64,000 bases of DNA. Source: Gemmatimonadota bacterium. GTDB lineage: Bacteria > Gemmatimonadota > Gemmatimonadetes > Gemmatimonadales > GWC2-71-9. The position numbers and the translations under genes were made by a program. Numbering within the stretch: position 1 is the stretch's first letter; each line of letters begins with the position of its first letter. A model generated the notes under the pieces. It ran no database searches. It had not been told where the DNA came from and saw only the letters and a program-made list of their open reading frames with translations. Below, piece after piece: positions 38,675-64,000 of this stretch. The DNA is taken from the NCBI GenBank assembly GCA_036679605.1, contig JAZDCZ010000085.1, positions 95,404-159,403 on the forward strand, written 5' to 3'.

Positions 38675-39005
38675 AACCCTCGCCGCGCGGATCCAGATGG
38701 GACCCTTGGGCAAAGAAGGCACAATCTGAGCGGGTCCTATGGAATGGTACAGCCGGCGGGTCCTTTCTTGGGTTCGGAGAGTATGACTCGTTCAGAGGAT
38801 TGAGACGAATATCTCCCGGGTGCTTCCTTTGCTTCCGCTGGGTCTTGAGCAATTCAGGGAGTATCCGGATACGGATGTGGCCCGTCGAGACCCGCGTGAC
38901 ACAAGGGGAAAACTGCCCCAAGAAATCACATTCAAGGCACATGGGCCCGGGAGCCGCGTCCTGACGGGGCTCGCGATACGGTCAGGGGATTAGCAATCCT
39001 CTGCT

Positions 39006-39051
39006 CTAGTTCCCCACCTTCGCCTTCAACTCCTCGAAGAAGTTCTCGACC
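39006..39051 (-). repeat. Orphan 3' tail of kinase-TolB gene (VENFFEELKAKVGN*)
   Basis: 45-nt identity to gene end at 62461-62505; lies about 70 nt after the MFS stop. Confidence 0.9.
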
Positions 39052-39119
39052 AAAAGTCCACGAGAAAGAGGCCCGTGAGCGCCGCGCGAAACAGGACTCG
39101 ACGCAAGCAGCTTTATGTT

Positions 39120-40325
39120 CTACGAAGAGCCTGAAGCCTCGCCGACTACTGGAGCCGCGCGTAAACGAAACACCAAGACCATCACAAACGCCAGCGTCGT
39201 TGCCGCTACAGAGAACGGAATCGCATAACCTAGTCCCTCGCTCCCAGTGCTTTCCAAGACCGGTCCGACGAACTGAGCGACGCCGCCGCTGATTGCTCCG
39301 AGGATACCGAGTATCAGGCCCCACTCCTCCCGACGAGTTCCATGGGTGACGAGCGCCGTCACAACTATGAAGAAGCAGGCTCTTGCGATCGGCATCACGG
39401 ATAGGATTAGCCAGGATGGCACGAGCCACATCGGCAGGAGGATGCTAACGAGCGCCAGGACCAGCAGCCCTGCGCCAAGCTGCATCACGCGGATCTCACC
39501 CAACCAATCCACGAGTCGACCCAATACGACTGCTAGCATCGCCACCGAAATCACCGCGGCATAGATAGGGAAGATCGTTTGGTCGGTCGCTCCGGAACCC
39601 ACTTCCAAGTTCAGCGCGAGCACCTCACTCATGGCCATCAAGCCGAGCGCGCCCCCACAGTAGATCCACACGAGGCGTGTGATCTTCCCCCTGGGCGCAA
39701 AGACCATATCCACGATCACCTCGCGAATCGAACGCGACAAGTGGCGCTGCAGTTGCTCCTTCGAGAGGCGTGAATCGGGTAACCAGCGGAAGGCGAAACC
39801 GAGGTTGAGGAGAACGACGGCTGCTGCCAGGAGGCCGGGCGCAGCCGTGCCCAGCCCGAAAGCCAGCGATCCAAGCGGGGCCCCGATCGTGATCCCGAGT
39901 AGCAGAGCGAGCGCTAGCCATCCAAGTCCCCTGGCCCGGTCCTTGGGTTCGGTCATATCCGCTACGTAGGCGTGCAGTACTCCGATCGTCCCCATAGCGA
40001 TGCCCTGCAGCGAGAGTGACAGGAATAACATCCACACGTTCGCAGTGAGACCGAACCCGGCAAACGCGATTGCGGAGGTTCCCATACCCGCCAGATAAGG
40101 CAGGCGTCGACCACGCCGGTCGGACAAACGCCCCCAGAACGGGGCGGAGACCAACTGTGCAATAAAGAGCACAGTCATCCAGTCCGTCCCTGGGTTCCCA
40201 TCCAACCGAATGGCGTAGAACGGAATGAGCGGGAACACCATCCCTAATGCGCTCGCGTTCACAAACGCAGTCACCAACAGCACCGATAAGTGCTGGAGGG
40301 CTCCGCTCGAAGAACCTTTCGCCAT
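39120..40325 (-). CDS. MFS transporter (TetA/DHA1-like)
   Basis: Motif A GRLSDRRGRR, AYVADMT...RARGLG, about 12 TM; ATG 40325 after GGAG. Confidence 0.9.
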   Translation of the reverse strand: MAKGSSSGALQHLSVLLVTAFVNASALGMVFPLIPFYAIRLDGNPGTDWMTVLFIAQLVSAPFWGRLSDRRGRRLPYLAGMGTSAIAFAGFGLTANVWMLFLSLSLQGIAMGTIGVLHAYVADMTEPKDRARGLGWLALALLLGITIGAPLGSLAFGLGTAAPGLLAAAVVLLNLGFAFRWLPDSRLSKEQLQRHLSRSIREVIVDMVFAPRGKITRLVWIYCGGALGLMAMSEVLALNLEVGSGATDQTIFPIYAAVISVAMLAVVLGRLVDWLGEIRVMQLGAGLLVLALVSILLPMWLVPSWLILSVMPIARACFFIVVTALVTHGTRREEWGLILGILGAISGGVAQFVGPVLESTGSEGLGYAIPFSVAATTLAFVMVLVFRLRAAPVVGEASGSS

Positions 40326-40520
40326 TAGCTCACTCCGGACCGTCGCGTCCCGGTCCCCTCTCAAGCTTCGGCAAGGACATCCCCACAAGCATTGCAGCCA
40401 ACATCGGTAACCATTTCATCTGACACCCCGCTGCCGTATCGTTAAAAGGCTTTGACGCTTCTTCTCACAAAGCAGCCCGTGAAGTGAGCCAGCGGCTCAA
40501 ACGCACATATCCCTGGGGTT

Positions 40521-40643
40521 TCAGAAGCGATGCTCGGGGGTCCCAACGCGTTCGATCTTGTAGCGGTCCGCAAGGGCGGTCGAGAGCTTGGACGTGATCT
40601 CGATCATGGGGCTAAGATGCAGTGCCGAAGCTCAGAGGGCCAG
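40521..40643 (-). pseudogene. Orphan kinase 5' stub with its upstream leader
   Basis: MIEITSKLSTALADRYKIER then unrelated VGTPEHRF*; leader matches 53582-53620. Confidence 0.85.
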
Positions 40644-40694: not shown

Positions 40695-40724
40695 CTAGTT
40701 CCCCACCTTCGCCTTCAACTCCTC
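40695..40724 (-). repeat. Orphan 3' tail (EELKAKVGN*)
   Basis: 30-nt identity to 62461-62490, 4 nt after the stop of kinase 40729-42996. Confidence 0.85.
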
Positions 40725-40728
40725 AAGT

Positions 40729-42996
40729 TCACGACCCCAGTGTACTCCGCTCCCATTCCACCAGTGCCTCCCACCGCGGCTTCACTTCAGCCATCAGCGC
40801 ATGGAACTCCGGCTCGGCCCTCAGGCTTTCCAGGAAGAGGGCTCCTTCACTTAGGATCGGATAGTTGATGAAGCCGTGTTCAATCGCGGTACGCAACCAG
40901 CGCAGTGCGTCGCCCTTGCGGCCGAGCAGCGCGTAGCCGTCCGCCATCATCCGACACGCGATATCGTTGTGGACGGTCTTCTCCATCTCTGGCGTGGCGA
41001 CCCGCAGGGCTTCCTCTTCATTCCCCTCCAATGCGTATTTGAGAAAGAGTGCGAAGGCACCGTGCGGATTGTCGGTGATCGCCGTGCCGACCCGGCCGAG
41101 GACCTTGGCCGCTTCGTCGGGGAACCCGGCTTCCGCGAGCGGCCAGCCTGCGTACACGTGCAACATGGAAATCTGCGGAGCCAGCGCGATCAGTCGGCGG
41201 GCAGGCGCAGCAGCCGTCTCCCTTGGACCGTATATGACTGCTAGATAGACCATGGCCAATTGGGTGCTCGAGGTCAGCGGGTCTATCTGAATCAACTTCT
41301 CGGCGTAATTACCAGTGTTACGGAGACCTGTAAAATTCGAGAACCGAATCAGCTCAGCGAGGATGTTGGGATCGTTGGGGCGAAGGGCATGGGCACGGTA
41401 TAGGTCTACGAGTGCGGACTCGGGCTGTCCACGCATCCCGGCCACGAGACCGCGAACGTAGATGGCGAGGTAGCAGTCCGGATCTATCGCGAGCGCCTGA
41501 TCCACGAGTTCCGACGCGCGGGCAAGCCCCTCGTCGGCCGGAACCACGTGCATGTTCACATGGCTCCAGTGAATACTCGCCTTGGTCGCCAGCAGAAGCG
41601 GCGAGTCGCCGACGACATCGATCGCGTCTTCGACCAAGCGTAGGGCGCGGTGCTGATCCTCCGGCGTCCAGTTGTATATCACCTGGCGTGCGCGCAGGTA
41701 GCAGTCGTAGGCGACCGGATCGTCGATTGGGCGCTCGGCGACGGCACGCTCCTCCGTGTCGGTGAGCTTCACCTTCAGGGCAGACACTATCTGCCTGGAG
41801 ATCTCCTCCTGGATCCCGAACACGTCCTCCATCGTGCCTGAGAACTTCTCGTTCCAGATTGTCGTATCGGTGCTTGCCTCTACCAGGTCGGCCGTGACGC
41901 GAAGGGCGGTCCCCGCCCTGCGCACGGTGCCGGTCACGAGGTGCGTCACACCCAGCTCCCGGCGGAGCGTCCGCGTGTCCTTCGTCGTTCGCTTCAGCAT
42001 CATCGACGAGTTACGGGAGATGACGTGTAAAGCCGATATGCGAGACAAATCCGAGATCACCTCGTCGGTGAGGCCGTCGCTGAAGTATTCATCGTCGGGA
42101 TCGGCGCTCCGGTTCTCGAAGGGCAGGACGACGATCGATCTCGCTTCTCTGTCCTGTTCCTTCCCCTCGGTCGTCAATCCTGTCGCGAAGGTGCCGGCAC
42201 TCTCATAACGGTCAACCGGCGTCTTGTTCAACGCCTTCGCCAGCGCGTTCGCGATTGATGGACTCACACTTGGCCGAGTCGTGGTAATCGGTGCTGCGGG
42301 GTCCGTGACGTGCTTGGCCATCACCGCCTGGGCGGTCGAGGCGGTGAACGGCGGGTCACCGGCCAACATCTCATACGTCACGCACGCAAGCGAGTAGACA
42401 TCGCTACGCGCATCGAGGTCCCGTTGCCCGGCGATTTGCTCGGGACTCATGTAGAACGGTGTCCCGAGCGACAATCCCGTTTCCGTGAGCCGTTCGCCGC
42501 CCGCAGCTTTGACGGCGATCGCGATGCCGAAGTCCGCCATGAGCGCCACGCCGTCCTGGAGCAGAATGTTCTCGGGCTTGATGTCGCGATGAATGACACC
42601 GCGCTTGTGCGCATAGTCGAGCGCGCCCGCGATCGCTTTAGTGATTTCGAGTGTTTCGTCGATCGATAGTTGCTTTTCGCGGTTGAGGCGATCGCGAAGT
42701 GATCCCCCGTCGACATACGGCATCACATAGAAGAGAAACGAATCGGCCTCTCCCGAATCATAGAGCTGCAGGATGTGCGGATGCTGGAGATTGGCTGTAA
42801 CGGTGACCTCGTTCAGAAAGCGCTCGCCGCCCAAGACGGCCGAGAACTCGGGCTTTAACACCTTGAGCGCGACCTTCCGCTTGTGCTTCAAGTCTTCGGC
42901 GAGGTACACGGTCGCCATCCCGCCCTCGCCGAGGTGGCGTTCGATCCGGTAGCGATCGGCGAGGGCCGTCGAGAGCCGGGACGTGATCTCGGTCAT
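40729..42996 (-). CDS. Ser/Thr protein kinase with TolB-N-like and TPR domains (cytoplasmic)
   Basis: VALK, HRDIKPEN, DFG; SIVVLPFEN...YFSDGLTDE module; TPRs. Confidence 0.93.
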   Translation of the reverse strand: MTEITSRLSTALADRYRIERHLGEGGMATVYLAEDLKHKRKVALKVLKPEFSAVLGGERFLNEVTVTANLQHPHILQLYDSGEADSFLFYVMPYVDGGSLRDRLNREKQLSIDETLEITKAIAGALDYAHKRGVIHRDIKPENILLQDGVALMADFGIAIAVKAAGGERLTETGLSLGTPFYMSPEQIAGQRDLDARSDVYSLACVTYEMLAGDPPFTASTAQAVMAKHVTDPAAPITTTRPSVSPSIANALAKALNKTPVDRYESAGTFATGLTTEGKEQDREARSIVVLPFENRSADPDDEYFSDGLTDEVISDLSRISALHVISRNSSMMLKRTTKDTRTLRRELGVTHLVTGTVRRAGTALRVTADLVEASTDTTIWNEKFSGTMEDVFGIQEEISRQIVSALKVKLTDTEERAVAERPIDDPVAYDCYLRARQVIYNWTPEDQHRALRLVEDAIDVVGDSPLLLATKASIHWSHVNMHVVPADEGLARASELVDQALAIDPDCYLAIYVRGLVAGMRGQPESALVDLYRAHALRPNDPNILAELIRFSNFTGLRNTGNYAEKLIQIDPLTSSTQLAMVYLAVIYGPRETAAAPARRLIALAPQISMLHVYAGWPLAEAGFPDEAAKVLGRVGTAITDNPHGAFALFLKYALEGNEEEALRVATPEMEKTVHNDIACRMMADGYALLGRKGDALRWLRTAIEHGFINYPILSEGALFLESLRAEPEFHALMAEVKPRWEALVEWERSTLGS

Positions 42997-43096: not shown

Positions 43097-43636
43097 TCAG
43101 TAGACATCGGGCTCGCCGAAGGCGTCGGGTGTCTTCCGGTGCTCAAAGTAAAAACGCTGAAGTTCAGGGGTCGTAGCGGTGAGGAGTATTTCATCGCCAA
43201 CCTCGACGTGCTCGATACCTTCGGGATCCTCCTCCAAGTATTGCTTGAGCCAGTCCGGGTTCATCGTTCGTAGTGTCGTCGTAGATCCCACCTGCTCGTC
43301 GATCCGGAAGAACACGTGAGTCGGAAGCAGCATCCCCTTCTCGTCGTCCAGTTCGACGGGGTAGACATCGAGGAACTTCGACCCACCAATACTGACCAAC
43401 TGCATGATCAACTCTCCCCGGTCGCATTCGTCGTCAATGAACTCGACTTCGTATGAAAAGAGTGGCATCTGCCCCGTGCCTGCAGTGACGATGAAAATCG
43501 CATTGGAATCTTCAGTGGTCCAGATGCCCAAGAGCGCGGGATCGAAGATGAGGTCGTCTTCACCATAGATGGGGAACACCGACGGGACGCAGCCAACAAG
43601 TAGACTGAGCGTGATAACACCGGTAATCGATTTCAT
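43097..43636 (-). CDS. Hypothetical lipoprotein
   Basis: MKSITGVITLSLLVG-C lipobox; GGAGA RBS; DPALLGIW. Confidence 0.8.
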   Translation of the reverse strand: MKSITGVITLSLLVGCVPSVFPIYGEDDLIFDPALLGIWTTEDSNAIFIVTAGTGQMPLFSYEVEFIDDECDRGELIMQLVSIGGSKFLDVYPVELDDEKGMLLPTHVFFRIDEQVGSTTTLRTMNPDWLKQYLEEDPEGIEHVEVGDEILLTATTPELQRFYFEHRKTPDAFGEPDVY

Positions 43637-43648: not shown

Positions 43649-43879
43649 TCAGCGCTGCCGAGAGGTGATCTCAGTCATGGGGCTAAGATGCAGTGCCGAA
43701 GCTCAGGTGGCCAGCGATCAACCCAGTGTGCTAGGTCCCCCCAGCAATACTCCTCCGTGTGCCTCGAATGTGCACGAACTCCTGTACACTGGTGACACTA
43801 AATCGCCCATCGACTGACCGATCAGCGCCCGTTTCCGCGTCACTGGTGTACACTGGTGCCTGTTAGTACCACCCCGTAG
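43649..43879. repeat. Kinase stub (MTEITSRQR*), leader and arm segment preceding a tRNA fragment
   Basis: Collinear with about 53568-53791; contains TGTGC repeats and CACTGGTG x3. Confidence 0.85.
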
Positions 43880-43972
43880 GAGGACTGAAAATCCTCGTGT
43901 CGGTGATGGACGCCCCATCCCCGTCACCACCACCGCTCGCGTCTGCTTCGCAACCAATTCCGTCTCGGGGCA
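43880..43972 (+). pseudogene. 3' fragment of tRNA-Phe with 46-nt T-loop insert (degenerate)
   Basis: GAGGACTGAAAATCCTCGTGTCGGTGAT + insert 43908-43953 + CCAATTCCGTC. Confidence 0.85.
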
Positions 43973-43986
43973 TTCCACACTTGCCT

Positions 43987-44553
43987 TCAACCCCAAAACC
44001 GATCGAGGAGATCACCCACCCCCAACACCTCCGACCATGTATCGAGGTATGCGCGGTCCAATGTCTCGCGATTCATGACAACGAGACTCTCGACGTCCCG
44101 TCGCTGAACTTCCGATACCTCGTCGCCGAGGCGGTACCACCGCAACTTGGCGAGCAGAATATCTTCCTTGGTGACCACCCGGAGTGGCACAGCGCCACCT
44201 GGCATTACGATCTCCACCGCCCGACGCGCCGCCTCTCTATCGAATGCAGTACGAAGCGGGAACACGTCCACCTTGAGATAGGTCTGGCGGTGAATCAAGT
44301 TGAAGCTCGTCCCGGAATCGAGGGCGGCGATTGCCTGATGGAGATCTGTAATGAACTCGCCGGAGAGCCCGTCCACTAGCCCGGGGAGGTGGCGTTGCTC
44401 CAGTGCCGCAACGATGTCTACATCGTTTGTCGCTCGGAATTCACCGTGGACGCTGCTTGCCAGCGAGCCCGAGATGAAGTAGGTGACATCCTCGCGCTGG
44501 AATGCCGTTGCAACCGACTCGACGACTGCGCGCAGCTCGGATACATCGGTCAC
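43987..44553 (-). CDS. Pol-beta-superfamily nucleotidyltransferase
   Basis: GSLASSVHGEFRATNDVD (GS...DxD), KVDVF, EDILLAKL; GTG start overlaps upstream TGA. Confidence 0.8.
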   Translation of the reverse strand: MTDVSELRAVVESVATAFQREDVTYFISGSLASSVHGEFRATNDVDIVAALEQRHLPGLVDGLSGEFITDLHQAIAALDSGTSFNLIHRQTYLKVDVFPLRTAFDREAARRAVEIVMPGGAVPLRVVTKEDILLAKLRWYRLGDEVSEVQRRDVESLVVMNRETLDRAYLDTWSEVLGVGDLLDRFWG

Positions 44554-44807
44554 GGGGAGGAGAACAGCGCGGAAACTATTCGTTCGGCGATTTCCGGGCC
44601 GTACAACTGTTGAGCGAACCGCTCGACGACCGCCGAGGTCCCCAAGTGCCCAACGTGGCTGGTTGCTCCCTGCCACGCCAGATCCCGTACAAACGCGCTG
44701 AGCGCCAGAGCCCTGGTCAAACGCTCCGGAGCGGGGACGGCCGCGATGAGTTCCAAGTAACTGGATCGTGCGGCGCTGTCAGTGTCCACGGCTGGGGGCC
44801 CGTTCAT
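44550..44807 (-). CDS. Small partner protein of the nucleotidyltransferase (TA-like pair)
   Basis: 85 aa, GTGA coupling; upstream TTGACC-N17-GACACT-N5-ATG leaderless-type promoter. Confidence 0.7.
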   Translation of the reverse strand: MNGPPAVDTDSAARSSYLELIAAVPAPERLTRALALSAFVRDLAWQGATSHVGHLGTSAVVERFAQQLYGPEIAERIVSALFSSP

Positions 44808-44845: not shown

Positions 44846-45110
44846 GCCGGTGTTGGGGTTGGGAGCGGACGGGGTGCCGATGTATAATTCTCCCGCTTCG
44901 GGCCAGGTAGCTCAGTTGGTAGAGCACGGGACTGAAAATCCTCGTGTCGGTGGTGGACGCTCCCTCCCCGCCACAACCCCACTCGCGTCTGCTTCGCAAC
45001 CAATTCCGCCCCTGGCCACTCCAGAACCCTCGTCAGACGGGGCTTTTCGCTATCTGAGCCTGGTCCATCACCCCTCGAAAACCCTTTCGTGTGCATGAAT
45101 GTGCGTTGAA
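44846..45110 (+). repeat. Duplication of tRNA-Phe locus (promoter, tRNA, terminator, arm repeats)
   Basis: Collinear with 31729-31948 plus 45-nt insert. Confidence 0.9.
44901..45018 (+). pseudogene. Full-length tRNA-Phe copy interrupted by a 45-nt T-loop insert
   Basis: 73 nt tRNA + insert 44955-44999; G27C and T55C changes; TATAAT retained. Confidence 0.88.
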
Positions 45111-45112
45111 AG

Positions 45113-45167
45113 AGTACCCACCTCAGCCTTCAACTTCTCGAAGAAGTTCTCGACCACGATCAATTCG
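45113..45167 (-). repeat. Degenerate orphan kinase 3' tail (ELIVVENFFEKLKAEVG)
   Basis: Aligns to 62461-62518 with several substitutions. Confidence 0.8.
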
Positions 45168-45208
45168 CTCGCCGCCTACCCTCCGAGATTCTGTTCTGCG
45201 CTGCAATC

Positions 45209-46621
45209 TCAATCCCTGGCTCCAGTCCCAAGATGCTCTTGTAGGAATTGAACCATTCGCGGCCAATAGGCGGCGTTGGCGGCCGCCGCATCCTTAGGGT
45301 TGCCACCGAGGAGAAGAGATCCGAATCTATCGTCGGTTCTGGGAAGATTCGGGGCGCCCAGTCGGTGTCCCGCTCCCGGGTAGGCGAGGTGCTCGTATGG
45401 GAACGCGAACTCATGCGTTTCGAGCCTCCGGTAGGCGACCTCCGAGAGCAGCGTGGACGGCAAAGCCAGATCACCGACTCCCGAAATGAGGAGTACCGGC
45501 CCATTGATGCGCTCCACCGGGATCACTCCCTGCTCGAGATAACCCGGATTCACGAACCCATAGAACAAATGGCGGGTGAGAGACACGGACGTTTGGTCAA
45601 TGCAGGACCATCCTTCCTCGGCGCCCCCCGGTCTGCACTCCGCGGGCTGCTCGGAAATCAAGGCAGCCCGCAGTGTTTTGGTTAACGGCATTCTGGGGAA
45701 GCGGGGAACGGGGTCGCCGCGATAGGTAAACTGGAAACCGTTCACGCCACCGCTCTTGATCGACACGACGGCCCTGATGTCCGGAAAGCGAGAGCCGACG
45801 AGAAGCGCTACGACACCGCCGGTCGACATCCCGACCACTCCGACCCGGTCGGCGGCGACTTCCTCCTGCCGCTGCAACCAGTTGATCGCTGTCTCGAAGT
45901 ACTCGAGTGGGATTTCCGACGTGGTGCTCTCAGGCAAGCCGTCCGCGCCGCACCATTGAAGCGCGAGCGTCACGAAGCCATGCGCCGCAAGCAACGCAGC
46001 CAGGTGTTCGGGGGGACCACAAAACCCACCATGTGGGACGAGTAATGCCGGCCGTGGCGCCGACCCCGAAGGCACGAACAGCGTGCCCACCAGACCCTCC
46101 TCGTGCACCGGCCGTCGGGCGACATCGCTGTCAGCGAAAAGACGCTCCAGCGTGTCCGCCAGCATCGGCCGGCCTTCAGCTTCGGCGCTGAGGGCCACCA
46201 GGAGGGGCTCGCCCGGTTGCACAACGCCGTCGAACTGGGGGATTGGCACGTCGTCAGGCTCGTCTCGCTCAACCCGAGTCATCGCCCAAAAGAGCCCCAT
46301 GGGATCCACGGAGTCATAGGAGCCGGCGATCGGCGCCAGCTCGCTGAGATCTACGATGCCCTGGGAATCCGCCTGAAAAGTGACACTTGCTTGCCATACC
46401 GCACCACCATAATTCTGCAGTTCGCCACGCAGGGTGACTTCCTCTCCTGGCTGCAGCCCCGAGATCGTGATCCGGACCGGCTGGTCAATGACCGCTCTCC
46501 GAGGGGAGATTGCCATTTGATAGCTGGTTGGTTCTTGAGCGCTAACCTCTGAAGCCGTAACTCCGACGGTGGCGAGGAAGATTGAGGCTATCAAGAAATA
46601 ATCCGCTGTGGTTTCGGACAT
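45209..46621 (-). CDS. Acyl-CoA thioesterase/BAAT-family alpha/beta hydrolase, exported
   Basis: GSYDSVDPMGLFWAM, IPLEYFETAI, GMSTG, YPGAGH. Confidence 0.88.
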   Translation of the reverse strand: MSETTADYFLIASIFLATVGVTASEVSAQEPTSYQMAISPRRAVIDQPVRITISGLQPGEEVTLRGELQNYGGAVWQASVTFQADSQGIVDLSELAPIAGSYDSVDPMGLFWAMTRVERDEPDDVPIPQFDGVVQPGEPLLVALSAEAEGRPMLADTLERLFADSDVARRPVHEEGLVGTLFVPSGSAPRPALLVPHGGFCGPPEHLAALLAAHGFVTLALQWCGADGLPESTTSEIPLEYFETAINWLQRQEEVAADRVGVVGMSTGGVVALLVGSRFPDIRAVVSIKSGGVNGFQFTYRGDPVPRFPRMPLTKTLRAALISEQPAECRPGGAEEGWSCIDQTSVSLTRHLFYGFVNPGYLEQGVIPVERINGPVLLISGVGDLALPSTLLSEVAYRRLETHEFAFPYEHLAYPGAGHRLGAPNLPRTDDRFGSLLLGGNPKDAAAANAAYWPRMVQFLQEHLGTGARD

Positions 46622-46675
46622 AGTTTGCCTCCTTCAGGCATTTGAAGTCCCAGAGCGACCGGATACCTAGTCGAC

Positions 46676-46894
46676 CTAACGACTATCCGGGTCGGATTCG
46701 TAGTCGAGAATGTCTCCGGGTTTGCACTCGAGCGTCCTGCAAATGGCATTGAGCGTATTGAAGCGGATGCCGCGGACCTTGCCGGTCTTCAACAGCGACA
46801 TGTTGGACAGCGTGATGCCAACCTCCTCTGCCAGTTGCGTGAGCGACATTTTTCGCTGCACCAACAGCAAGTCCAAGTTCACTTTGATCGCCAT
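46676..46894 (-). CDS. XRE/YozG-type HTH regulator
   Basis: MSLTQLAEEVGITLSNMSLLKTGKVRGIRFNTL...CKPGDIL. Confidence 0.92.
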   Translation of the reverse strand: MAIKVNLDLLLVQRKMSLTQLAEEVGITLSNMSLLKTGKVRGIRFNTLNAICRTLECKPGDILDYESDPDSR

Positions 46895-46897
46895 GTC

Positions 46898-47682: not shown

Positions 47683-47820
47683 ACCAGAGCCACCAGGGAG
47701 GCCGGGAGGTTCTGCGGGAGTCCCCTGTTCGTGTGCGTCCTGGGACCTCTAGATCTCCACCAATCCCTTCACCTCGCTCGCCGTCATCGAACGACGACCC
47801 CACTGAACCCGATTCCGGTC

Positions 47821-48215: not shown

Positions 48216-48230
48216 GGCACGTACGGGCCA

Positions 48231-55266: not shown

Positions 55267-56072
55267 AGAGGATCCCGAGTCTGCTTATGATGCACAGCCG
55301 TGCGCGGCGGCGCCCCCGGCCCTTCATCATTCGACTCATCCCTATCCGGATCGTCGGAGCCCTCATCCCGGAGAAGCGCGATTCCAGACCCGATCAGCGG
55401 GACGAGAAACAGCACGTCCGTGACGAGCATGCTCGGCAAATTGAGGTGTCGCGCCACCTGGGGCGGGACGAACATCAGGAGCAAGAGCGCGGCCACGGCG
55501 AGAAGCACCACGCCCGTCCGTCGACGAGGCCATCGCCCGGCTAACCGCGCGAGTAAGAGGAACGGCGCGACGACAATGGAGCCCATGAGCGACCCCAGCA
55601 GAACCTCCGCCGCATTCTCTGACTCGCCGATGACGTCTTCGATGACGAAAACGGCCCAGAACGCACCGAATGTGAACAAGACCCGCGACGCCGTCTTTCG
55701 TGCCCCCCAATAGGCCAGTAGTCCGCTGAATAGCCACGTCATCCACAGGACGACCAGGATGAGCGTGATCCATTCGGCGCCGTCTTGGTTCGCGTCGCGC
55801 CACCTCAGCCCGGACACAGCGAAGACCGCCGCGAGACCTCCGATCAAGTAGGCATGGTATCCTGCCCGGTGCGCCGCTTGCCGTTGGAACTCGTCGTGAT
55901 CCTTGAGCCAGCCCAGTTCGCGGAGGATGCCCGGCCCGAACGCGCCTAGCCCCGCCACCACCAGCAGGCCCTCAGCAACGAACATCGAGCCTAGCACCCC
56001 GAGGATCACGAGCCCGCCGGCGATCAGTCCGGGAAGTGGAGGTAATCGTCTTCCCTCAGTGTGCTCAGCCAT
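55263..56072 (-). CDS. Hypothetical multi-pass membrane protein
   Basis: About 8 hydrophobic segments, DEFQR motif; coupled to upstream HTH gene. Confidence 0.8.
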
Positions 56073-56295
56073 GGTGTTCCTCCCCTTCGATTTCAAACAA
56101 CACCTCCACGGCGACGCCGAACGTTCCGGCGAGCCGTAACGCTAGGCCAACGGAAGGATTGTACCGGCCCCCCTCGATGGAGAGGATCGTCTGCCGCGTG
56201 ACACCGACCCGATCTGCCAGCTCCTGCTGGGTCATGTCGTGGAGTTGGCGTCGGTGACGCCGCACATGATTCCGGACCTCTTGCTGCGGCCTCAT
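56065..56295 (-). CDS. XRE-family HTH regulator
   Basis: [28 protein letters not shown]. Confidence 0.93.
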
Positions 56296-56551: not shown

Positions 56552-58819
56552 CTAGTCCGGCTCCCGCGTACGCCTCTTGTACCAGGGCGCATCCGCGACA
56601 CGGGTACGAAGCCCAGGGTCGATTCGCACCGCAAACGATGCCAGCTCGAACGCCAGATCCTCGCGGTCGAGGTTGGCAAGCACAAGCGCCGCATCCATTG
56701 CGTGACCTGCGAGCGGGAGACGTCCCGTAGTATCCGCGGTCTCGGCTGCCCCTTGGAGCAGCTGCGGAATGGCATTGGCGAGACGACCGTCGGGAGGCGC
56801 TCGATTGATGTTGAGCAGCAGCGTATCCAGCGCGCTAAGGAGCAGCGTCTGAGGCAGCTCGGCGGCTGAAAACGCCCACCACTGCCAGCTCGGGCGTGAC
56901 AGCGCCCCGGTCAGGGCTGCAGCGGCGACCGCGGCGACATCGTCTTCACTCACCCGTGTGCGGAGTATCGATTCCAGCAGCCCATATGCAGAGTCGGCTC
57001 GATCTAGATCTCCGTACTCCAGAAACAGCCCCACGGCCCACGATCGAGCTACAAACCCATCCCGGGGGAACCCCAGTAGTATGAGTGGCCCCTCTTGTAT
57101 CCGGCCCCCCCTCCACAACGAATCGAGGAGATTGAACGCCTCAGCGTGTCGCCGGAGCTTGCCCAGCAAGACCATCCGTCGAGCGCCGAGTCCGGTGGGA
57201 CGTGTACCCCCGAGCGACTCAGCGCGGATGAGCGCACTGAGTGCCCCGTTGAAGTCCCCATCCAATTCGTACACGGACGACGCCAACGAATGTGCCCGCG
57301 GATCTGTGGGCGCAGCAGTAAGCCACTTGTCGACCCAGGCACGGGCGACCACCCGCGCACGTGCGCGCGCGGCCAGGAGGACATCTTCGGAGATCATCTT
57401 GAGCGAGTCAACCGGATCTACTGGGATCAGCTCCATGGTGTCCCGCAGCACTGGGACGAACTGGCGATCCGCTCGAGATAGGGAAGTGACCCAGTCGATG
57501 AGCGATGCCGGCTCATTCCGCATGCCCATCAACCACGTCCAGCCAGTCCAGTAGCCACCCGCTTCGCGATAGCTCTGAGCGAGCATGACGTAGACATCCA
57601 GGCGCGCCGCGTCGAGCACGCTCACACGCTTTACCAGCCGTAGCGCTGCATTGACTGAGCCCCGCAGGCGCTCCACACCATTTACCGTCACCAGCACGGG
57701 ATCGAAGAGCTCGACCCCCGCCAGCATGCCTAGCGCCTCGGTGTCTGTCGAGTCGACGTTGATCGTGCTCTCCAACGCACGCCTGGCAGCCGGAAAGTCC
57801 GCTCGCAAGACTGCATCTATCGCCTGCACAAATTGTCGCTCACGAGGCGGGAGACGCGAGGACAACGTGACAGCGCGCCGCATGGCGCGATTAAGCTCGC
57901 TTCGTGGATCAAATATCGCAGCTGCCGCCTGCGGATCCGGATCACCAAATATCCCTATCTTCCCCATCCACGCCATCGTAACCCATGCATGTGCCAAGGC
58001 GAACGCGCTATCGAGCCGCACCGCTTCACGAGCTGCCTCCAACGCTGCGTCGACCTCCAACCGATCATAATGCGCTCGGGCGCGCAGATAGGCCTTGTAT
58101 GCGTCGAGCGACTGTGTGGTTGCACTTGCCCTGATCAAATCCGGCCGGCGTGCGAGATCTTCCGTTCCGAGGAGCCCGAACGCCACGCGCTCGAACACGG
58201 CGCGAATGTCCTCCTCAACATCCGCCTCCTCCACGGTGCGAGCCAGTTCCTGATTGGTCACCACGTCATAGGCACGGGCGCGTACCCGTACTCGACCACC
58301 GGTCTCCAGCACGTCACCGGTCACGACCGTCCAGCCGCCGGTTTCCGCTGCCATCCGACGCACGACCTCCTCGTCCATTACCTCACCGCTCGTAAGCCCA
58401 TGGCGGCGCATCGCGGGATAGAGTCGTGTCTCCGGCACCACCGAGAGCTCCTGCCACTGGCCCAGCGCATCTGTAAATAGTGCAACCGACCCGTCGATCA
58501 GCCACTCGAGTTCCGGGGTGCGAGTGAGGTTGCGGAACGGGAGCACGAGGAAACTGCGCGCGCGAACGTCTTGAGCCGGGGGTTCGTCACGAGCCACGAT
58601 GGCGGGCCGTCCTACGGCCACAGCGCATGGCGGGGGCGTGCCGTCGGCACACTGAGCAAGCAGATGAACTGGAAACACCGCTGTCAGCAGCGTCACGGCC
58701 AGCATGGCTTGAAGGGGCCGACCATAGTAGTGCATGGTCATCCTATCAGCACCAAGCTCCCGCTCAACAACATAGCGATCCGCGAGGGCGGTCGAGAGCT
58801 TGGACGTGATCTCGGTCAT
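56552..58819 (-). CDS. TolB-N-like/TPR protein carrying an in-frame kinase 5' stub but no kinase domain
   Basis: MTEITSKLSTALADRYVVERELG then signal-peptide-like segment, CADGTPPPC, FLVLPFRN, TPR-like helices. Confidence 0.8.
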   Translation of the reverse strand: MTEITSKLSTALADRYVVERELGADRMTMHYYGRPLQAMLAVTLLTAVFPVHLLAQCADGTPPPCAVAVGRPAIVARDEPPAQDVRARSFLVLPFRNLTRTPELEWLIDGSVALFTDALGQWQELSVVPETRLYPAMRRHGLTSGEVMDEEVVRRMAAETGGWTVVTGDVLETGGRVRVRARAYDVVTNQELARTVEEADVEEDIRAVFERVAFGLLGTEDLARRPDLIRASATTQSLDAYKAYLRARAHYDRLEVDAALEAAREAVRLDSAFALAHAWVTMAWMGKIGIFGDPDPQAAAAIFDPRSELNRAMRRAVTLSSRLPPRERQFVQAIDAVLRADFPAARRALESTINVDSTDTEALGMLAGVELFDPVLVTVNGVERLRGSVNAALRLVKRVSVLDAARLDVYVMLAQSYREAGGYWTGWTWLMGMRNEPASLIDWVTSLSRADRQFVPVLRDTMELIPVDPVDSLKMISEDVLLAARARARVVARAWVDKWLTAAPTDPRAHSLASSVYELDGDFNGALSALIRAESLGGTRPTGLGARRMVLLGKLRRHAEAFNLLDSLWRGGRIQEGPLILLGFPRDGFVARSWAVGLFLEYGDLDRADSAYGLLESILRTRVSEDDVAAVAAAALTGALSRPSWQWWAFSAAELPQTLLLSALDTLLLNINRAPPDGRLANAIPQLLQGAAETADTTGRLPLAGHAMDAALVLANLDREDLAFELASFAVRIDPGLRTRVADAPWYKRRTREPD

Positions 58820-59010
58820 GGGGCTAAGATGCAGTGCCGAAGCTCAGGTGGCCAGCCACGACTGCCGCTTGACGCCTCCCCGAAGTGGCCCCATATGTAT
58901 GTGAGGATCGGTCACCGTCCGACAACTCCGAGGGGGAGCACTCGCCGTGCCGAAGCACCGCTTGCAGCCCTCCTGCACGCCCGTCCCCCCCTCACTTCCC
59001 GGAGGTACCA

Positions 59011-59763
59011 ATGATTCACCGCATCTTGCAGGTCAGCCTCGTGTTGGCCCTCTTCGCGATGCCGGCTGTTGCTCAGGATGCCGGCCAAGGCGAACAAGTG
59101 TACGTCGCTTCGTTCAAAATCGGTTACGCGGACCTGGGTGACTGGATCACTTCGTATCAGGAGCATGACGTTTCAGTGCTCCAGGGGCTCCAGGAATCCG
59201 GCCTCATTGTCGGCTGGAACGTGTGGCAGCACAACACTGGTGGAGAGTACAACTGGCGCTTTGCCGTCCGTACGGACAACTGGGCGGCGTTCGCCAAATT
59301 CTGGCAGGAGTACCTCGGCCAAACCGCCGAGCTGGCCGGTGTCGGCAGCCAGCGAATCGGGCGCATGATCCAGGCGCATTACGACGAGATCTGGGACATC
59401 ACAGAAGTCAACGTGCCGGAGGGCCTGACCGCCTCGTACCTGTACGACGCGCGCTTCCAAATCGCCTTTCCAGACGTGGATGCGTGGAACGAGATGTGGG
59501 CCGAGCACGCAGCCCCGGTACTCAACCAGGCAATGAAGGATGGGCTCCTGGGTGGCTGGGTGACCGAAGGTCATAACACCGGGGGACGCTACAACTGGAA
59601 GGTGCTCTACCTCTTCGAGGAATGGGACGACATCGACGATGTTCTCGGGCGGCTGCTGGGTGCTCTGACCTCCGATCCCGAGGTGTGGAATCACATGGGT
59701 TCACTCATCGCGGCCCACGACGACGTTATCTGGGAAGCCGTACCCGATCCTGACGGTATGTAG
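59011..59763 (+). CDS. Exported hypothetical protein with two internal repeats
   Basis: GGAGG RBS, signal peptide AVA-Q, HNTGGxYNW and AHxDxIW each twice. Confidence 0.8.
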   Translation: MIHRILQVSLVLALFAMPAVAQDAGQGEQVYVASFKIGYADLGDWITSYQEHDVSVLQGLQESGLIVGWNVWQHNTGGEYNWRFAVRTDNWAAFAKFWQEYLGQTAELAGVGSQRIGRMIQAHYDEIWDITEVNVPEGLTASYLYDARFQIAFPDVDAWNEMWAEHAAPVLNQAMKDGLLGGWVTEGHNTGGRYNWKVLYLFEEWDDIDDVLGRLLGALTSDPEVWNHMGSLIAAHDDVIWEAVPDPDGM

Positions 59764-59783
59764 CGCCACGCCGGTCGGCCGGC

Positions 59784-59860
59784 GCGGTCGAGAGCTTGGA
59801 CGTGATCTCGGTCATTGGGCAATAAGATGAAGTACCGCAGCTAGGGTGGCCAGCGATCAA
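59784..59860 (-). repeat. Degenerate kinase leader plus 5' stub (MTEITSKLSTA)
   Basis: Matches about 53550-53626; abuts the stop codon of the permease gene. Confidence 0.85.
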
Positions 59861-62302
59861 TCACGAGTCGCGCAGCGCGCTCGTGGGGTCTACGGTTGTC
59901 GCGCGCCGCGCCGGCAAGTACGACGCGACGATAGTCACGACGATGAGGAGGAGTGATACGGTCGCGAACACCACCGGATCGCGCGCGTCGATCTCGAAGA
60001 GCATTCCAGTGATGAGTCGGCTCGCAGTGAACGCTCCAAGCAACCCCAGGGCAATACCGACGAGGGCTACGCGGACGCTCTGGCCGACTATCAATGCCAA
60101 GACGGCTGCTTGCGACGCACCTAACGCCATCCGAATGCCGAGTTCTCGCGTCCGTTGTGTCACAGTGTACGACACGATCCCGTAGACGCCCACACTCACA
60201 AGCATCAGCCCGAGTAGGCCGAACCCGCTGAACAACATTACGTTGAACTGTCCACCGGCCGTGGCGGCGGTGATGACCTGTCCCATCGGCCGCACGTTCG
60301 ATAGCGGTACGTCGCTGTCCAACGCGCTCACGACCTGCCTCATCTCGGGAATGATGGTCGTCGGTTCGTTCGCGGTGCGGATGGTCATCGTGAGGGCGCG
60401 CGCCACAAAGTCAGACGACGAGGGAAACTGGCCGAGCGGGAGATACATCTGCGGCCGCGGTTCTTGCCGGAGGTTGTTGTGCCGCACGTCACGCACGATG
60501 CCGATCACCGTCCGGAAGACCGTATCGATGGTCGAGCTCAAATGGAACCGTGAGCCCATTGCCTCGCCGTCGGCCCAGTAGCGCTGAGCCATCGTCTCGT
60601 TGATCACAACCACGGGTGCGGATTCATCGTGATCCGATCGGTCGTAGAGCCTCCCGTCCAACACCTGCACACCCAGTGTCTCGAAGTACCCGTCGCTCAC
60701 GATGATCCAATCTGCCCAGGGTCTCCGGCCACTGGCGAGTCGCTCTTCCTCTCTCCCCTCGATGCGTACGCCCCAATCGCCAGGCCGACTGGCAAGGGGG
60801 AGCTGGTTGGTGCCGCCGACTTCGACGACGCCGGGAAGGCCGCGCACTTCGTCGAACACCTGCCGATAGAATTGCCGGGCATCGGCGGCGGTTGGGTACG
60901 TCTGCGAGGGAAGCGAGATTCGAGCGGTGAGCACGCGATCACCATTGAAACCGGGGTCCACCGCAGTGAGACGTTGGTAGCTCTTGGCGAGAAGGCCTGC
61001 GCCAACCGCGAGCATCAAACCCACCGCGACCTCGGCGATGACCAATGTACGACGCATGCGGTGGCGCCCGATCCCGGCCGTCCCACCTCGGCCGTCCGCG
61101 CGCAGCACGTTCCCCGCCGTATCCTTCCGGAAGTGCAACACCGGTGCGAGCCCAAACACGAGTCCCGTAATCCCCGCGACTGCGATGGTGAAAGCGATTG
61201 CGCGGGGATCAACCGCGATGTCATCGATGCGCGGGATGCCCGGTGGTGCTACCACTCGCACGATGCGCAGCATCCAGGCTGCGAGTATCAACCCTGCACC
61301 CCCGCCCAACAGCCCGAGCACCACGCTTTCGGTCAGGAGCTGCCGAGCAACGCGCAACCTGGCGCCGCCGAGCGCGAGACGGATGGCCATCTCGTGTGCC
61401 CGTGACTCCGCGCGCGCGAGCAAGAGGTTCGCCACATTTACACAGGCGATCACCAACACAAGCGCAACCGACCCGAAGAGCACGAACAGCGTCGGGCGGA
61501 CTGCACCCAGAACCTCGTCGCGAACGGGCACGACAGCAGCGCGGAACGTCGGCGGAAGTGTGCCGATCGTTTCCTTGAGGCGCTGTGAGGCGATGTCCAT
61601 CTCAGCTTTTGCGTTTTGGAGCGAGATGCCATCGACAAGCCGCGCGACTACACCTAGGTAATGGATGTTCCTCGGGTCAGGTGTGGCGTTTAGTGCCAAC
61701 GGGACGAACAGTCCACTTCTGGTGCCAACGTAATCTGTCGGGAGGCGGAAATCCTCGGGCATGACGCCGATGACAGTCAAGGGACCGCCGTCGACCATGA
61801 TGCTGCTACCGACAATCTGCGGATCGCCGCCAAACCGCTCGTGCCACAGCTCGTGGCTCAGGATCACAACGTCGTCTCGCCCCCGCTCGTCCTCCTCTGC
61901 GCTGAACGCCCTTCCATTCGCGGGGAGCACGCCGAGAACCGAAAAGATCTCGGCATTGACGAATCCGGTGAGTACGCGTTCGGCTTGAAAGTCACCGGTG
62001 AGATTTGTCCACCCTTGCGTAAAGGCTGCCACGGACGCGAAAGCGTCAATCTGGGTCCGGTAGTATTCGCGCTCCAACTCCGACACGCCGATACGGTTCT
62101 CGATATCGGTGCCGTAGACCACCACGATCCGGTTCTCGTCCGGATAGCCCAACGCCTTTAGCGCGACCGTGTCGACCACGCTGAACATCGCGCCGTTGGC
62201 GCCGATGCCGAGTGCCAGGGTTGCGACGACCGCGGCGGTGAAGCCCGGGCGCTTGAGGAGTGTGCGTAGCGTATACGTCAGGTCTTGTCGGAACGATTCC
62301 AT
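59861..62302 (-). CDS. ADOP-type duplicated ABC permease (MacB/FtsX family), orphan
   Basis: QDLTYTLRTLLKRPGF, LALGIGAN, LVIACVNVANLLLAR, RTRELGIRMALGA, PARRA. Confidence 0.93.
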   Translation of the reverse strand: MESFRQDLTYTLRTLLKRPGFTAAVVATLALGIGANGAMFSVVDTVALKALGYPDENRIVVVYGTDIENRIGVSELEREYYRTQIDAFASVAAFTQGWTNLTGDFQAERVLTGFVNAEIFSVLGVLPANGRAFSAEEDERGRDDVVILSHELWHERFGGDPQIVGSSIMVDGGPLTVIGVMPEDFRLPTDYVGTRSGLFVPLALNATPDPRNIHYLGVVARLVDGISLQNAKAEMDIASQRLKETIGTLPPTFRAAVVPVRDEVLGAVRPTLFVLFGSVALVLVIACVNVANLLLARAESRAHEMAIRLALGGARLRVARQLLTESVVLGLLGGGAGLILAAWMLRIVRVVAPPGIPRIDDIAVDPRAIAFTIAVAGITGLVFGLAPVLHFRKDTAGNVLRADGRGGTAGIGRHRMRRTLVIAEVAVGLMLAVGAGLLAKSYQRLTAVDPGFNGDRVLTARISLPSQTYPTAADARQFYRQVFDEVRGLPGVVEVGGTNQLPLASRPGDWGVRIEGREEERLASGRRPWADWIIVSDGYFETLGVQVLDGRLYDRSDHDESAPVVVINETMAQRYWADGEAMGSRFHLSSTIDTVFRTVIGIVRDVRHNNLRQEPRPQMYLPLGQFPSSSDFVARALTMTIRTANEPTTIIPEMRQVVSALDSDVPLSNVRPMGQVITAATAGGQFNVMLFSGFGLLGLMLVSVGVYGIVSYTVTQRTRELGIRMALGASQAAVLALIVGQSVRVALVGIALGLLGAFTASRLITGMLFEIDARDPVVFATVSLLLIVVTIVASYLPARRATTVDPTSALRDS

Positions 62303-62402
62303 TTGTGTCTCTCGCCTTCGAAGGGCATGGTTGGACGTGACCCTTGGACTTCGGGCCCCATTTATCCCTTAGACACGGAAACGGTCGCTGGGGTTGGAAT
62401 CG

Positions 62403-62460
62403 CGCGTTGTTGCCCGCTACTTGGGACCCATTGGCGAAGAAAGCATACCGCTTGTGCGAG
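62403..62460. repeat. Partial GGGACC-motif repeat abutting kinase gene stop
   Basis: CGCGTTGTTGCCCGCTACTTGGGACCCATTGGCGAAGAAAGCATACC vs 35341-35388. Confidence 0.8.
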
Positions 62461-64000
62461 CTAGTTCCCCACCTTCGCCTTCAACTCCTCGAAGAAGTTC
62501 TCGACGATGATCAACTCGTCCAGATCAGTCTGGCCGCGCGGGGGGATCATCAAGAATCGTTGATCGTCCGGTGCGACATCGTAGAGGGCCTCAATCCCTT
62601 GCAAGGGAAACAGCACGCGACGTTCACCGATGGCGAACGTCGGTCCCGCTAGGATCTCGACAACCTCCATCTCATTCGTAGTGTTGATATAGAACAACTC
62701 GCGTCCACTGTGCGCCCACCGAGCATTCCGTCCCCCGTTTGTCGAGACCGGCCACATCGCCTCTCCGGTATTTGGAAACGGCCGGACGAACACCTCCCTG
62801 CGCCCGGATTCGTCTGAATCGTATGCCAGCCAGCGCCCGTCGGGAGACACTGCCGGGAACCGATCATTGAACTCGGAGGTGACCAACGGCACCGGCACGC
62901 TGTCGCCCAATGGGAGGCCGTAGATGTCTCGGGTCGGGGGCGCTGACCGGTACACCAGCCACTGTCCGTCTCGCGTCCAGAAGGCTTCCACAACATCGGT
63001 TTCGACGTCGATCAACACTTCGGCCATCGCACTCCCGTCGGCACGCTTGACATACACGTCGCGAGGACTCGCCCCACGATTCGAGATGAACGTTATTCCC
63101 CGTCCGTCAGGGGTCCATGTCGGACGAGTATTCGCCGTTCCCTCAAAAGTGCGCTTGGACAGCGGTCCACGATCCAGTTGCTTGATCCAGATCTGTTGCT
63201 CCGTGCCATCGTTGATACCCACGGCCGCCTGTGTGCCGTCGGGTGAAATGGACACCGACTCGAAATTCGCGGTCCATCCGGGGTCGACCTCCTCAATCGT
63301 CCCATCTCGCGCCACCCACCCCAACCGGTCGGGCTCGCCTCCACCAGTACCCGTCGCGTAGATGAGCCTCCCTCCAGTCGATATTGTAAGGTCGACGGAG
63401 CCATTGACCCGCATACTAAGGCCCTCGACCAACGCGGTCGCGTCGCCCGTGCGCGCCAATGCATTCTGATCTAACGGTGCCGCCAGGAGCGTCTGGTCTG
63501 CAGTGACATACACCAGGTGCCCAGACGCCGCGTATCGCGCGTACACCCCCCGCACCAACACCTTGTGCCGGCCGTTCGAGAGATCCACTATAGCGATGTC
63601 GCTCTCCGACTGATCAGGCCCGTACCTGACCGTAAACAGCACGCCCTTCCCATTGGGCAACGGCTCAGGAAACAAATGATCGGTCTCACCACGCGCCGAA
63701 TCGACCGTTGTCACACTTTCCAGATCACCCCCACTCGCGGGGAACCGCTGTAGTCCTTCCCCCGCAAAACCAGTCACATATAAAAAGCCATCCGGCCCCC
63801 AGCCACCCCCGAACGCCCGGATCCCGGAATCGGCAATCGTCAGAGGCGGGCCGCCACCGAGCGACATTACACGGAGCGTGACCGGGTTGAAGGTGACGAA
63901 CGCGGCCCGGCTGCCGTCTGGTGAGAAGAACGGCACACCGCCACCGGTCGTCCCCGGTACCGTAGCCGCCTCCAGCTGATCCCGGTGCCGAAGGAACAAC
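62461..64000 (-). CDS. TolB/PD40 beta-propeller C-terminal part, probably of another kinase (partial)
   Basis: Paralogous to C-termini of 48231-50927 and 50924-53581; ends ENFFEELKAKVGN*; N-terminus outside window. Confidence 0.88.
   Translation of the reverse strand, partial: LFLRHRDQLEAATVPGTTGGGVPFFSPDGSRAAFVTFNPVTLRVMSLGGGPPLTIADSGIRAFGGGWGPDGFLYVTGFAGEGLQRFPASGGDLESVTTVDSARGETDHLFPEPLPNGKGVLFTVRYGPDQSESDIAIVDLSNGRHKVLVRGVYARYAASGHLVYVTADQTLLAAPLDQNALARTGDATALVEGLSMRVNGSVDLTISTGGRLIYATGTGGGEPDRLGWVARDGTIEEVDPGWTANFESVSISPDGTQAAVGINDGTEQQIWIKQLDRGPLSKRTFEGTANTRPTWTPDGRGITFISNRGASPRDVYVKRADGSAMAEVLIDVETDVVEAFWTRDGQWLVYRSAPPTRDIYGLPLGDSVPVPLVTSEFNDRFPAVSPDGRWLAYDSDESGRREVFVRPFPNTGEAMWPVSTNGGRNARWAHSGRELFYINTTNEMEVVEILAGPTFAIGERRVLFPLQGIEALYDVAPDDQRFLMIPPRGQTDLDELIIVENFFEELKAKVGN

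Follow-up and report, generated by a model that had tools for sequence, protein, structure and literature searches.

Kinase gene ends at the tRNA-Phe locus

The window analyzed here, a stretch of 64,000 nucleotides (nt), is the right-hand end of contig C419 (JAZDCZ010000085.1) from G000, a Gemmatimonadota bin (GCA_036679605.1) of 6.7 Mb in 434 contigs that is 96.5% complete and 6.3% contaminated; the far side of the locus lies unseen beyond the contig end. The left half of the window belongs to the core genome (dnaA, dnaN, yidC and mutS were recognized from the sequence), and the content is variable from the intact tRNA-Phe(GAA) gene at 31784–31857 (plus strand; ARAGORN, Rfam) rightward, this gene being the left border of the variable region. 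There, the two ends of Hanks-type Ser/Thr kinase genes, which encode a Pkinase domain with PD40 or TPR repeats (Pfam), recur as short stubs, or handles, at the edges of unrelated genes (cargo). The 5' unit comprises 36–45 nt of upstream sequence with the first codons of the kinase gene, and the 3' unit comprises the last 10–25 codons and the stop codon of the kinase-PD40 gene. The sequences show directly that such stubs exist and derive from kinase genes, that they border cargo, that the same cargo recurs between handles with differing flanks, and that identity at silent sites is raised near the gene ends. The probable explanation is that kinase gene ends serve as short stretches of homology for recombination, through which unrelated genes enter, leave and pass between kinase loci.

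All handles in the window are on the minus strand. The reference for the 5' handle is an intact kinase-PD40 gene of 885 aa (50924–53581; Pfam), the 5' unit of which, with a predicted promoter (53582–53626), is accordingly not an orphan. The 3' handle has as its reference a kinase-TolB gene that is cut by the contig end and of which the PD40 part and the true 3' end remain (62461–63999), so that the copy of the 3' unit at 62461–62518 is a genuine gene end. Four orphan 5' handles are present: a predicted promoter with the first 20 kinase codons (40548–40643; 60 nt of coding sequence kept), a predicted promoter with 7 codons (43657–43721; 22 nt), a predicted promoter with approximately 16 codons (58773–58857; 47 nt) that is joined in frame with an open reading frame (ORF) of 755 aa, and a copy with 44 nt of coding sequence at 59772–59860. 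The orphan 3' handles are located at 39006–39052 (the last codons and stop of the kinase-TolB gene), at 40695–40736 (immediately after the stop of a kinase-TPR gene, a 75%-identical homolog of which on contig C214 is associated with a similar stub), at 45113–45191 (76 nt kept), and at 48158–48216 (after a kinase-PD40 gene whose own end differs). The initial annotation, which described recurring 5' and 3' units around different contents, is borne out for every unit that it named, and the copy at 59772–59860 is a fifth 5' unit in addition to these.

The contents between the handles are diverse. An MFS transporter (39120–40325, minus strand; PF07690) has both handles around it. Next to it lie the aforementioned kinase-TPR gene, which combines the 5' codons of the family with its own upstream sequence (40729–42996, minus strand; Pfam), and a 179-aa lipoprotein-like ORF (43097–43636, minus strand) that has no family hit and was not found in the 300 family genomes searched. 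A cargo block at 45209–47539, entirely on the minus strand, consists of genes for a BAAT-type acyl-CoA thioesterase (45209–46621), an HTH_26 protein (46676–46894) and a DUF2975 protein (46898–47539; all Pfam). The kinase-PD40 (TolB-like) gene at 48231–50927 (minus strand; Pfam) overlaps the upstream stop codon with its start by 4 nt. The 755-aa ORF (56552–58819, minus strand) yields only a weak TIGR04510 hit; a homolog, 80% identical in its 5' part, lies between a 5' and a 3' stub on contig C212, and for five relatives of this cargo no upstream stub is seen by eye. It is followed by a 250-aa ORF without a family hit (59011–59763, plus strand), which is opposite to the following stub, and by an ADOP-family permease (59861–62302, minus strand; TIGR03434 above the cut-off). 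The Pfam scan, which took in 20 ORFs of the window, thus agrees with the earlier identification of the MFS, BAAT, HTH_26 and DUF2975 cargo and of the kinases with PD40 or TPR repeats; of the "lipoprotein", the ORF stands, without a family hit.

The orthologous tRNA-Phe locus of G001, the only genus mate (3.7 Mb), offers the comparison among relatives that had been proposed, and its content indeed differs: the neighboring genes are not those of the window, while the same leader with a 53-codon kinase stub adjoins the tRNA-Phe gene. In the window, the 5' unit at 53582–53626 is part of a longer segment (53582–53914, minus strand) in which the predicted promoter is joined to an extended leader with an interrupted tRNA-Phe remnant (53794–53914). 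This leader also heads other cargo on contig C214, in G001 and in L020, and another extended leader with such a remnant (43722–43977, minus strand) is 87% identical to 53582–53890.

Several further features of the locus are short repeated sequences of other origin. A second tRNA-Phe copy (44901–45022, plus strand; self-BLAST, Rfam) contains an insert of approximately 46 nt in the T-loop region and has duplicated tRNA flanks. Altogether, four tRNA-Phe-derived copies share one common insert of this kind (44901–45022, 43882–43977, 53794–53914 and C214:38878–38971), and in three of the four cases the copy precedes a kinase leader. An intergenic segment of approximately 140 bp (self-BLAST) is located at 35330–35467, upstream of a plus-strand kinase-TPR gene of a second subfamily (35510–38674; Pfam), and has copies at 47820–47957 (88%) and 62403–62465 (83%); it is possibly a third kind of anchor. 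A two-gene pair at 43987–44807 (minus strand) encodes an 85-aa protein and a weakly recognized DUF6036 nucleotidyltransferase, and remnants of this pair lie upstream of tRNA-Phe in G001, where a 2876-aa ORF is found between two sets of such remnants (L002:4883–14178), a layout which implies that at this locus stubs around cargo also derive from genes other than kinases. Kinase ends are thus the principal source of homology at the window locus, with other sequences adding to it. A GSDH-family gene (plus strand) and genes for a membrane protein and an HTH_3 protein (minus strand), all within 54037–56295, are cargo without an adjacent handle. To the left of the variable region, the ORF at 30510–31553 appears, by eye, to be a fusion of chlorite-dismutase-like and Rieske-like domains, beside a HemY-like gene; the same fusion is apparent in G001.

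Distribution and specificity of the kinase stubs

The genome of G000 encodes 118 ORFs with a kinase hit, and no other short-repeat cluster in it is as large as that of the handles (70 peaks on 23 contigs). A search with a profile of the 5' coding end gives 53 matches, 26 of them on whole kinases and 27 elsewhere; after removal of one match at a contig end and addition of two found with a promoter profile, 28 orphan 5' stubs were measured, and these retain 21–146 nt of coding sequence (median 50). The 3' profile has 37 matches in the genome versus none in the reversed genome, 23 attached to kinase genes and 14 unattached. With two matches left out, on C430 (weak, unrelated) and on C26 (a longer tail, used as reference), the remaining 12 orphan 3' stubs retain 31–76 nt (median 40). 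The promoter profile has 21 matches versus 1 in the reversed genome, the control having been applied to the 3' and promoter profiles and not to the 5' coding profile. Thus, the units do not occur by chance, and the notion of one array gives way to a dispersed set of handles on 26 contigs and in other genera.

Cargo bracketed by the two ends of a kinase gene, the arrangement from which the initial annotation started, exists but is the minority: a 3' stub is found within 5 kb downstream for only 5 of the 28 5' stubs, so that single-handle accretion looks commoner than two-end replacement. Many units have the form 5' handle–cargo–5' handle, and in only five of the 28 cases does the stub open the called downstream ORF. 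In tandem kinase arrays, the 3' end of one gene is fused to the start of the next, with overlapping stop and start codons. A core at approximately codons 8–12 is kept even in diverged stubs. Other short repeats in this genome include a dispersed intergenic repeat of 45–110 bp on C154 (35076–41752), C217 and other contigs (19 peaks on 10 contigs), three contig-end copies of which adjoin an identical longer element, and two more dispersed intergenic families of approximately 115–150 bp with 6–9 copies each (C165/C251/C332 and C319/C254/C276).

The formation of stubs appears to be particular to the kinases. With protein profiles, the kinase-PD40 gene ends yield 11 stubs versus 87 attached starts and 4 stubs versus 31 attached ends, whereas the ADOP-like permeases, a family of 39 members, yield none (0/37 and 0/46), a significant difference (15/133 versus 0/83; Fisher p = 0.0006). 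The C-terminus of the kinase-TPR proteins, used as a further control, gives 0/11 stubs. End-only matches in other paralogous families are few (3/24 in AAA regulators, at the C-terminus; 1/9 and 1/16 in a 15-member family) and are likely to be unrelated proteins with the same motif. Among 122 kinase starts, 86 belong to complete domains, 31 break off by residue 100, one does so at 101–150 and none at 151–240, with four at contig ends; truncated kinases are therefore short, with 31 of 32 finished by residue 100. Similarly, when isolated fragments are considered, the first 30 columns of the profile account for 14 of 105 matches, and seven internal windows for 0–1. The gene ends are also distinguished at silent positions, given that four-fold-site identity among 20 genes is 0.69 over codons 1–20 as opposed to 0.35–0.57 over the kinase body, and among 17 genes 0.73 over the final 12 codons as opposed to 0.27–0.40 over the propeller (genes picked by kinase-domain protein score, saturation at 0.33). 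The raised identity fits repeated exchange of the ends; constraint at the RNA level could be an alternative.

Outside G000, the 3' handle is detected (E ≤ 1e-6) in 32 of 401 genomes of the phylum, 24 of them from the same family, in a survey that scored two candidates per genome. At the 29 best-hit loci, the handle is attached in 23 cases and represents a stub or a partial gene in 6. The tallies in relatives refer to loci chosen by hits and are not genome-wide rates. In G031–G033, 21 loci comprise 10 stubs, 7 attached ends, 2 partial genes and 2 contig ends; stubs are found also in selected loci of G001, G014, G016, G021, G091, G160 and G400; the loci examined from G012, G013, G017, G018 and G019 have none. 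Some of the calls in G316, G016 and G033 are possibly frameshifted or contig-end genes. A 33-nt motif of the 3' handle is exactly conserved at 6 loci in 5 other genomes, the named records being Gemmatimonadota, and an exact match to the 5' handle is absent from viral_contigs. The stub trait is patchy, being strongest in a subset of genera.

Cassettes in different neighborhoods

In three cases, a cassette has both ends in handles and unrelated flanks. The first is an ABM gene (PF03992), the coding sequence of which is 94–95% identical in G000, G032 and G146, as compared to 69–71% for dnaA-dnaN. Between G146 and G032, the homology begins in the 5' stub and stops in the 3' stub, and the flanks are unrelated. 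In both of these genomes the gene is flanked by a 5' stub of 41 codons and by a 3' stub; the stub of G000 is a shortened one. The 5' stubs of G146 and G032 are only 79% identical to each other, as expected if each stub partly derives from a different resident paralog. The genome of G146 is a single contig in which a tblastn search finds no kinase continuation behind the stubs.

The second case is an FAH unit (PF01557), which is 92% identical over 1127 nt between contig C265 and G001, with the match extending from the predicted −35 box into codon 12 of the handle that follows. This is the highest of 51 best hits of G001 loci against G000 (range 65–92%); an argument contrasting this value with 72% for the core was softened, given that other genes shared by G001 and G000 reach 84–89%. 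The third is a unit that we take to be RidA-like, shared by C265 and C301 at 95% identity over a stretch that begins at the −10-like box of one handle and reaches codon 16 of the following handle. It is followed by different cargo on one contig and by a whole kinase on the other, and the neighbors differ on both sides. Like the FAH unit, it has a 5' handle at either end. Single-gene cassettes, namely these two units and one that is presumably DUF2306-like, occur in differing neighborhoods and orders. Empty sites, in which a 5' stub is joined to a 3' stub and the kinase body is gone, are found in G001 and G032, and whole kinase-PD40 genes are shared as well (e.g., at 87% identity between C19 and G033). 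On a separate metagenome contig, the leader from the window with 49 codons lies ahead of genes for cytochrome c and a PQQ dehydrogenase; the exact promoter-plus-start pattern matches one metagenome contig and no genome contig. The claim that kinase termini act as handles accordingly gains comparative support, from the same cargo in different flanks, loci and genera, and the recombination step itself is what we infer.

A number of observations weigh against the interpretation of the kinase ends as recombination handles. No circle or crossover product has been seen, the data consisting of contigs and unitigs only, and handles of 40–100 nt at 80–100% identity are short for efficient RecA exchange. 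The MFS, lipoprotein-like and 755-aa cargo of the window was not found with handles in the 300 family genomes (two candidates scored per genome), and in two other sequencing runs the match to the MFS gene stops at 40349, approximately 200 nt short of the stub. Handle-free accessory genes are common to G000 and G146/G394 at 86–92% identity, from which it follows that genes in this group can be transferred without them; for example, a handle-free gene for a 100-aa protein between two kinases (C296:11448–11771) is 86–92% identical to its counterparts in G146 and G394, with the limits of homology almost exactly at its start and stop. The contig that carries the ABM gene in G000, C154, shares more genes with G032 at 82–85%, and the bin is contaminated as stated above; the G000 copy could therefore be misbinned, and the comparison of G146 with G032 is independent of it. 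The window contains further short anchors, namely the three tRNA-Phe copies with the shared insert and the 140-bp intergenic repeat. Simple deletion, too, favors gene ends among isolated fragments, and the C-terminal motif is conserved as protein across the phylum. Cargo and stub are co-oriented in 23 of 28 cases for the 5' stubs and in 11 of 12 for the 3' stubs, not above the background of 0.75 (p = 0.26 and 0.16, respectively), and co-orientation was dropped as a sign of promoter capture.

The most serious competing explanation is passive decay, whereby deletions erode the kinases of the island, the ends linger, and the cargo moves by other routes, dragging the stubs along; the 5' stub would then be kept as a promoter for the next gene, and the 3' stub as a ribosome-binding signal, or would simply not yet be lost. 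A deletion within a dispensable gene leaves its ends; longer broken and frameshifted kinases do exist, the handle-free genes shared across genera are compatible with such a scenario, and so are the short tRNA and nucleotidyltransferase remnants at the same locus. Decay alone does not readily account for the lack of detectable stubs in the ADOP family, which is of similar size, for truncations bunched below 100 residues with none at 151–240, for shared cargo bounded by handles on both sides within unrelated flanks, for the many 3' stubs with no gene start behind them, or for the homogenized silent sites at the gene ends. Taken together, these observations make passive decay rather unlikely.

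Possible mechanism and relation to known systems

If the kinase ends serve as recombination handles, the capture of a cargo gene would come first, through rare illegitimate recombination within a kinase gene, which would explain why each cargo has its own junction (21–146 nt at the 5' end and 31–76 nt at the 3' end). By way of its stubs, the cargo would then share homology with dozens of sites on the chromosomes of this genus and its relatives. With crossovers in both the 5' and the 3' stub, the body of a resident kinase could be replaced with cargo or with nothing, giving empty sites, whereas a crossover between successive 5' handles could excise a circle, and re-entry at any 5' handle would stack cassettes. 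The incoming cassette might be expressed from the predicted leaderless promoter on the 5' handle. The likely machinery would be host RecA together with natural transformation; comEC and dprA are present in G000 but are common anyway (10–11 of 14 control genomes). Fused 3'–5' joints occur in the unitig data, and tandem junctions on other contigs give the same joints. Read joints at 88% similarity were dropped as evidence of circles because they are dominated by kinases of other organisms.

The promoter prediction rests on the arrangement of motifs in the 5' handle: a −10-like hexamer is located 6–8 nt before the ATG, and conservation starts at a −35-like hexamer 17 nt further up, which suggests that the upstream part is a promoter for a leaderless transcript. 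The "leader" described earlier does recur, and looks like such a promoter. The −10 motif is located ahead of 21 of 56 kinases and ahead of 26 of 2572 other genes, an enrichment diminished in force by the fact that the motif was defined from these very handles, and a strict sigma-70 scan did not list the handles; both points count against the proposed scheme. The accessible text of PMC10783764 does not address leaderless starts in this phylum.

Alternatively, an unlinked recombinase or a dedicated annealing protein might read the core within the handles, which would make the system a true integron analogue. The persistence of the core around codons 8–12 in diverged stubs and the exact 33-nt motif in other genomes are in line with this possibility, as are 35 Phage_integrase matches in the genome (33 over the cut-off), one of which is approximately 7 kb from a stub cluster on contig C426. 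None of these matches is on C419, where neither a tyrosine recombinase (PF00589) nor a reverse transcriptase is hit, so that the earlier statement on the absence of integrases stands for tyrosine recombinases, transposases having been covered only by the Pfam scan of the 20 ORFs. The handles fold no better than shuffled sequences (z from 0.02 to −1.14 for six handle strands), Rfam matches are to tRNA only, and attC-like or other folded sites were ruled out on these grounds. Given also that the junction positions are scattered and that the limits of homology track the extent of handle similarity rather than one fixed base, we consider a site-specific system quite doubtful.

The junctions themselves are supported by Logan unitigs of run X1, which is possibly the source sample: these show 0 differences from the window at an even depth of 15–20 and span six stub-cargo stretches with the junctions inside (records 1, 2, 4, 5 and 8; e.g., the junction at the 3' handle 39006–39052 within the unitig 39023–40599 and the 3' handle 45113–45191 within 44978–46865), and the junctions are therefore real DNA, not assembly chimeras as had been considered. 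An artefact of repeats misjoined in assembly or of several strains merged in the bin might be suspected from the size of the contaminated bin relative to its genus mate, from contigs that end in handles or shared cargo and from unitigs that break inside handles, none covering the whole array, such that the cassette order across handles rests on the original assembly, but it is hardly credible in view of these identical unitigs of even depth, the stubs in an unrelated metagenome contig and in other genomes, and the stubs in single-contig genomes without a kinase continuation behind them.

A broader proposal, to which we give about as much credence as doubt, is that Gemmatimonadota of this family share an integrase-free cassette network: kinases would double as genome-wide landing sites, with ends kept near-identical across genera by constant exchange; genes that bear stubs would become self-expressing mobile cassettes; and the handles would also swap kinase-sensor bodies, possibly with a dedicated short-homology recombinase.

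The likeness to integrons and Rhs modules that was originally noted holds for the cassette order and the variable stubs, and not for an integrase, attC sites or toxin tips. Integrons line up single-gene cassettes that are varied in cargo and change in order, and single-gene cassettes in differing orders are found here as well; unlike integrons, the handles have no linked integrase on C419 and no attC-like hairpin, and the junctions are scattered over 21–146 nt. Arrays of attC-like repeats (18 peaks) are present on contigs C279, C350 and C432 of this genome. Genomic islands accrete site-specifically at tRNA genes, and the region likewise starts at tRNA-Phe and contains three further tRNA-Phe-derived copies; however, both tRNA halves are retained around the shared insert in these copies, in contrast to simple 3' att duplications, and a link to tRNA genes is not evident for most handle sites in the genome. 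Orphan Rhs, CDI and MafB modules carry a toxin tip that is in frame with the stub and precedes an immunity gene, whereas the cargo here consists of transporters, enzymes and regulators. Separately, contig C426 (1–23000) has a classic orphan-Rhs layout, with a Rhs core-stub array, a repeated leader and a tyrosine recombinase hit (7405–7920), along with kinase stubs.

Three published systems, compared here as far as the accessible parts of the respective papers describe them, are closer. The minimal mobile elements of Neisseria exchange gene content by homologous recombination in conserved flanks without mobility genes (PMC3787668), as the kinase handles would do, but they use specific conserved genes at one locus, whereas the anchors here are tens of bases long and occur at dozens of paralogous loci. 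In rhs tip displacement and in Neisseria mafB, variable-length stubs of a multi-copy gene, strings of modules and a model of RecA-type circles with single crossovers recur (PMC2935791); there, the module is a tip of the same protein fused to the core, while here it is mostly a free-standing unrelated gene, the handles derive from either end of the kinase gene, and a predicted promoter comes with the 5' stub. In the T4-type phages RB49 and phi1, PeSLs lie between genes as stem-loops with a promoter and a terminator, and mini-circles have been shown for them (PMC2839356). Much as in the PeSL system, short elements that may carry a promoter are repeated before accessory genes, cassettes of a gene and a handle would be shuffled by homologous recombination with no integrase identified, and gene gain, loss or replacement is bounded by the elements, here in comparisons among genomes; unlike PeSLs, the handles are formed by the coding ends of chromosomal kinase genes, exist in a 5' and a 3' version and occur across several bacterial genera, and they have no terminator stem-loop or significant folding. 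In its working, the system is closest to PeSL shuffling and the rhs circle model and shares its logic with minimal mobile elements, while being a member of none of these. We found no published description of kinase stubs (subscription journals and supplements being outside the scope of the search), and neither protein kinases nor recombination come up in the accessible text of an ecogenomics paper on the whole phylum (PMC10581226).

In 2010, as the accessible text on PeSLs puts it, there was no evidence yet of such plasticity in cellular organisms (PMC2839356). With the kinase handles, the shuffling of promoter linkers in cellular genomes, a question left open at that time, can be tested directly, and, if the proposal is correct, the handles would represent the equivalent of PeSL shuffling on bacterial chromosomes and across genera, with a signaling gene family as its raw material. 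They would constitute a route of horizontal gene transfer that is invisible to island and integron finders, the handles being annotated as gene fragments or missed, and the 33-nt 3' motif is a simple marker for gene flow among marine-sediment Gemmatimonadota. For these bacteria, such exchange would offer a reason for keeping 30–120 kinase paralogs in hypervariable arrays, and a large paralogous family with homogenized ends would be a self-reinforcing insertion hotspot.

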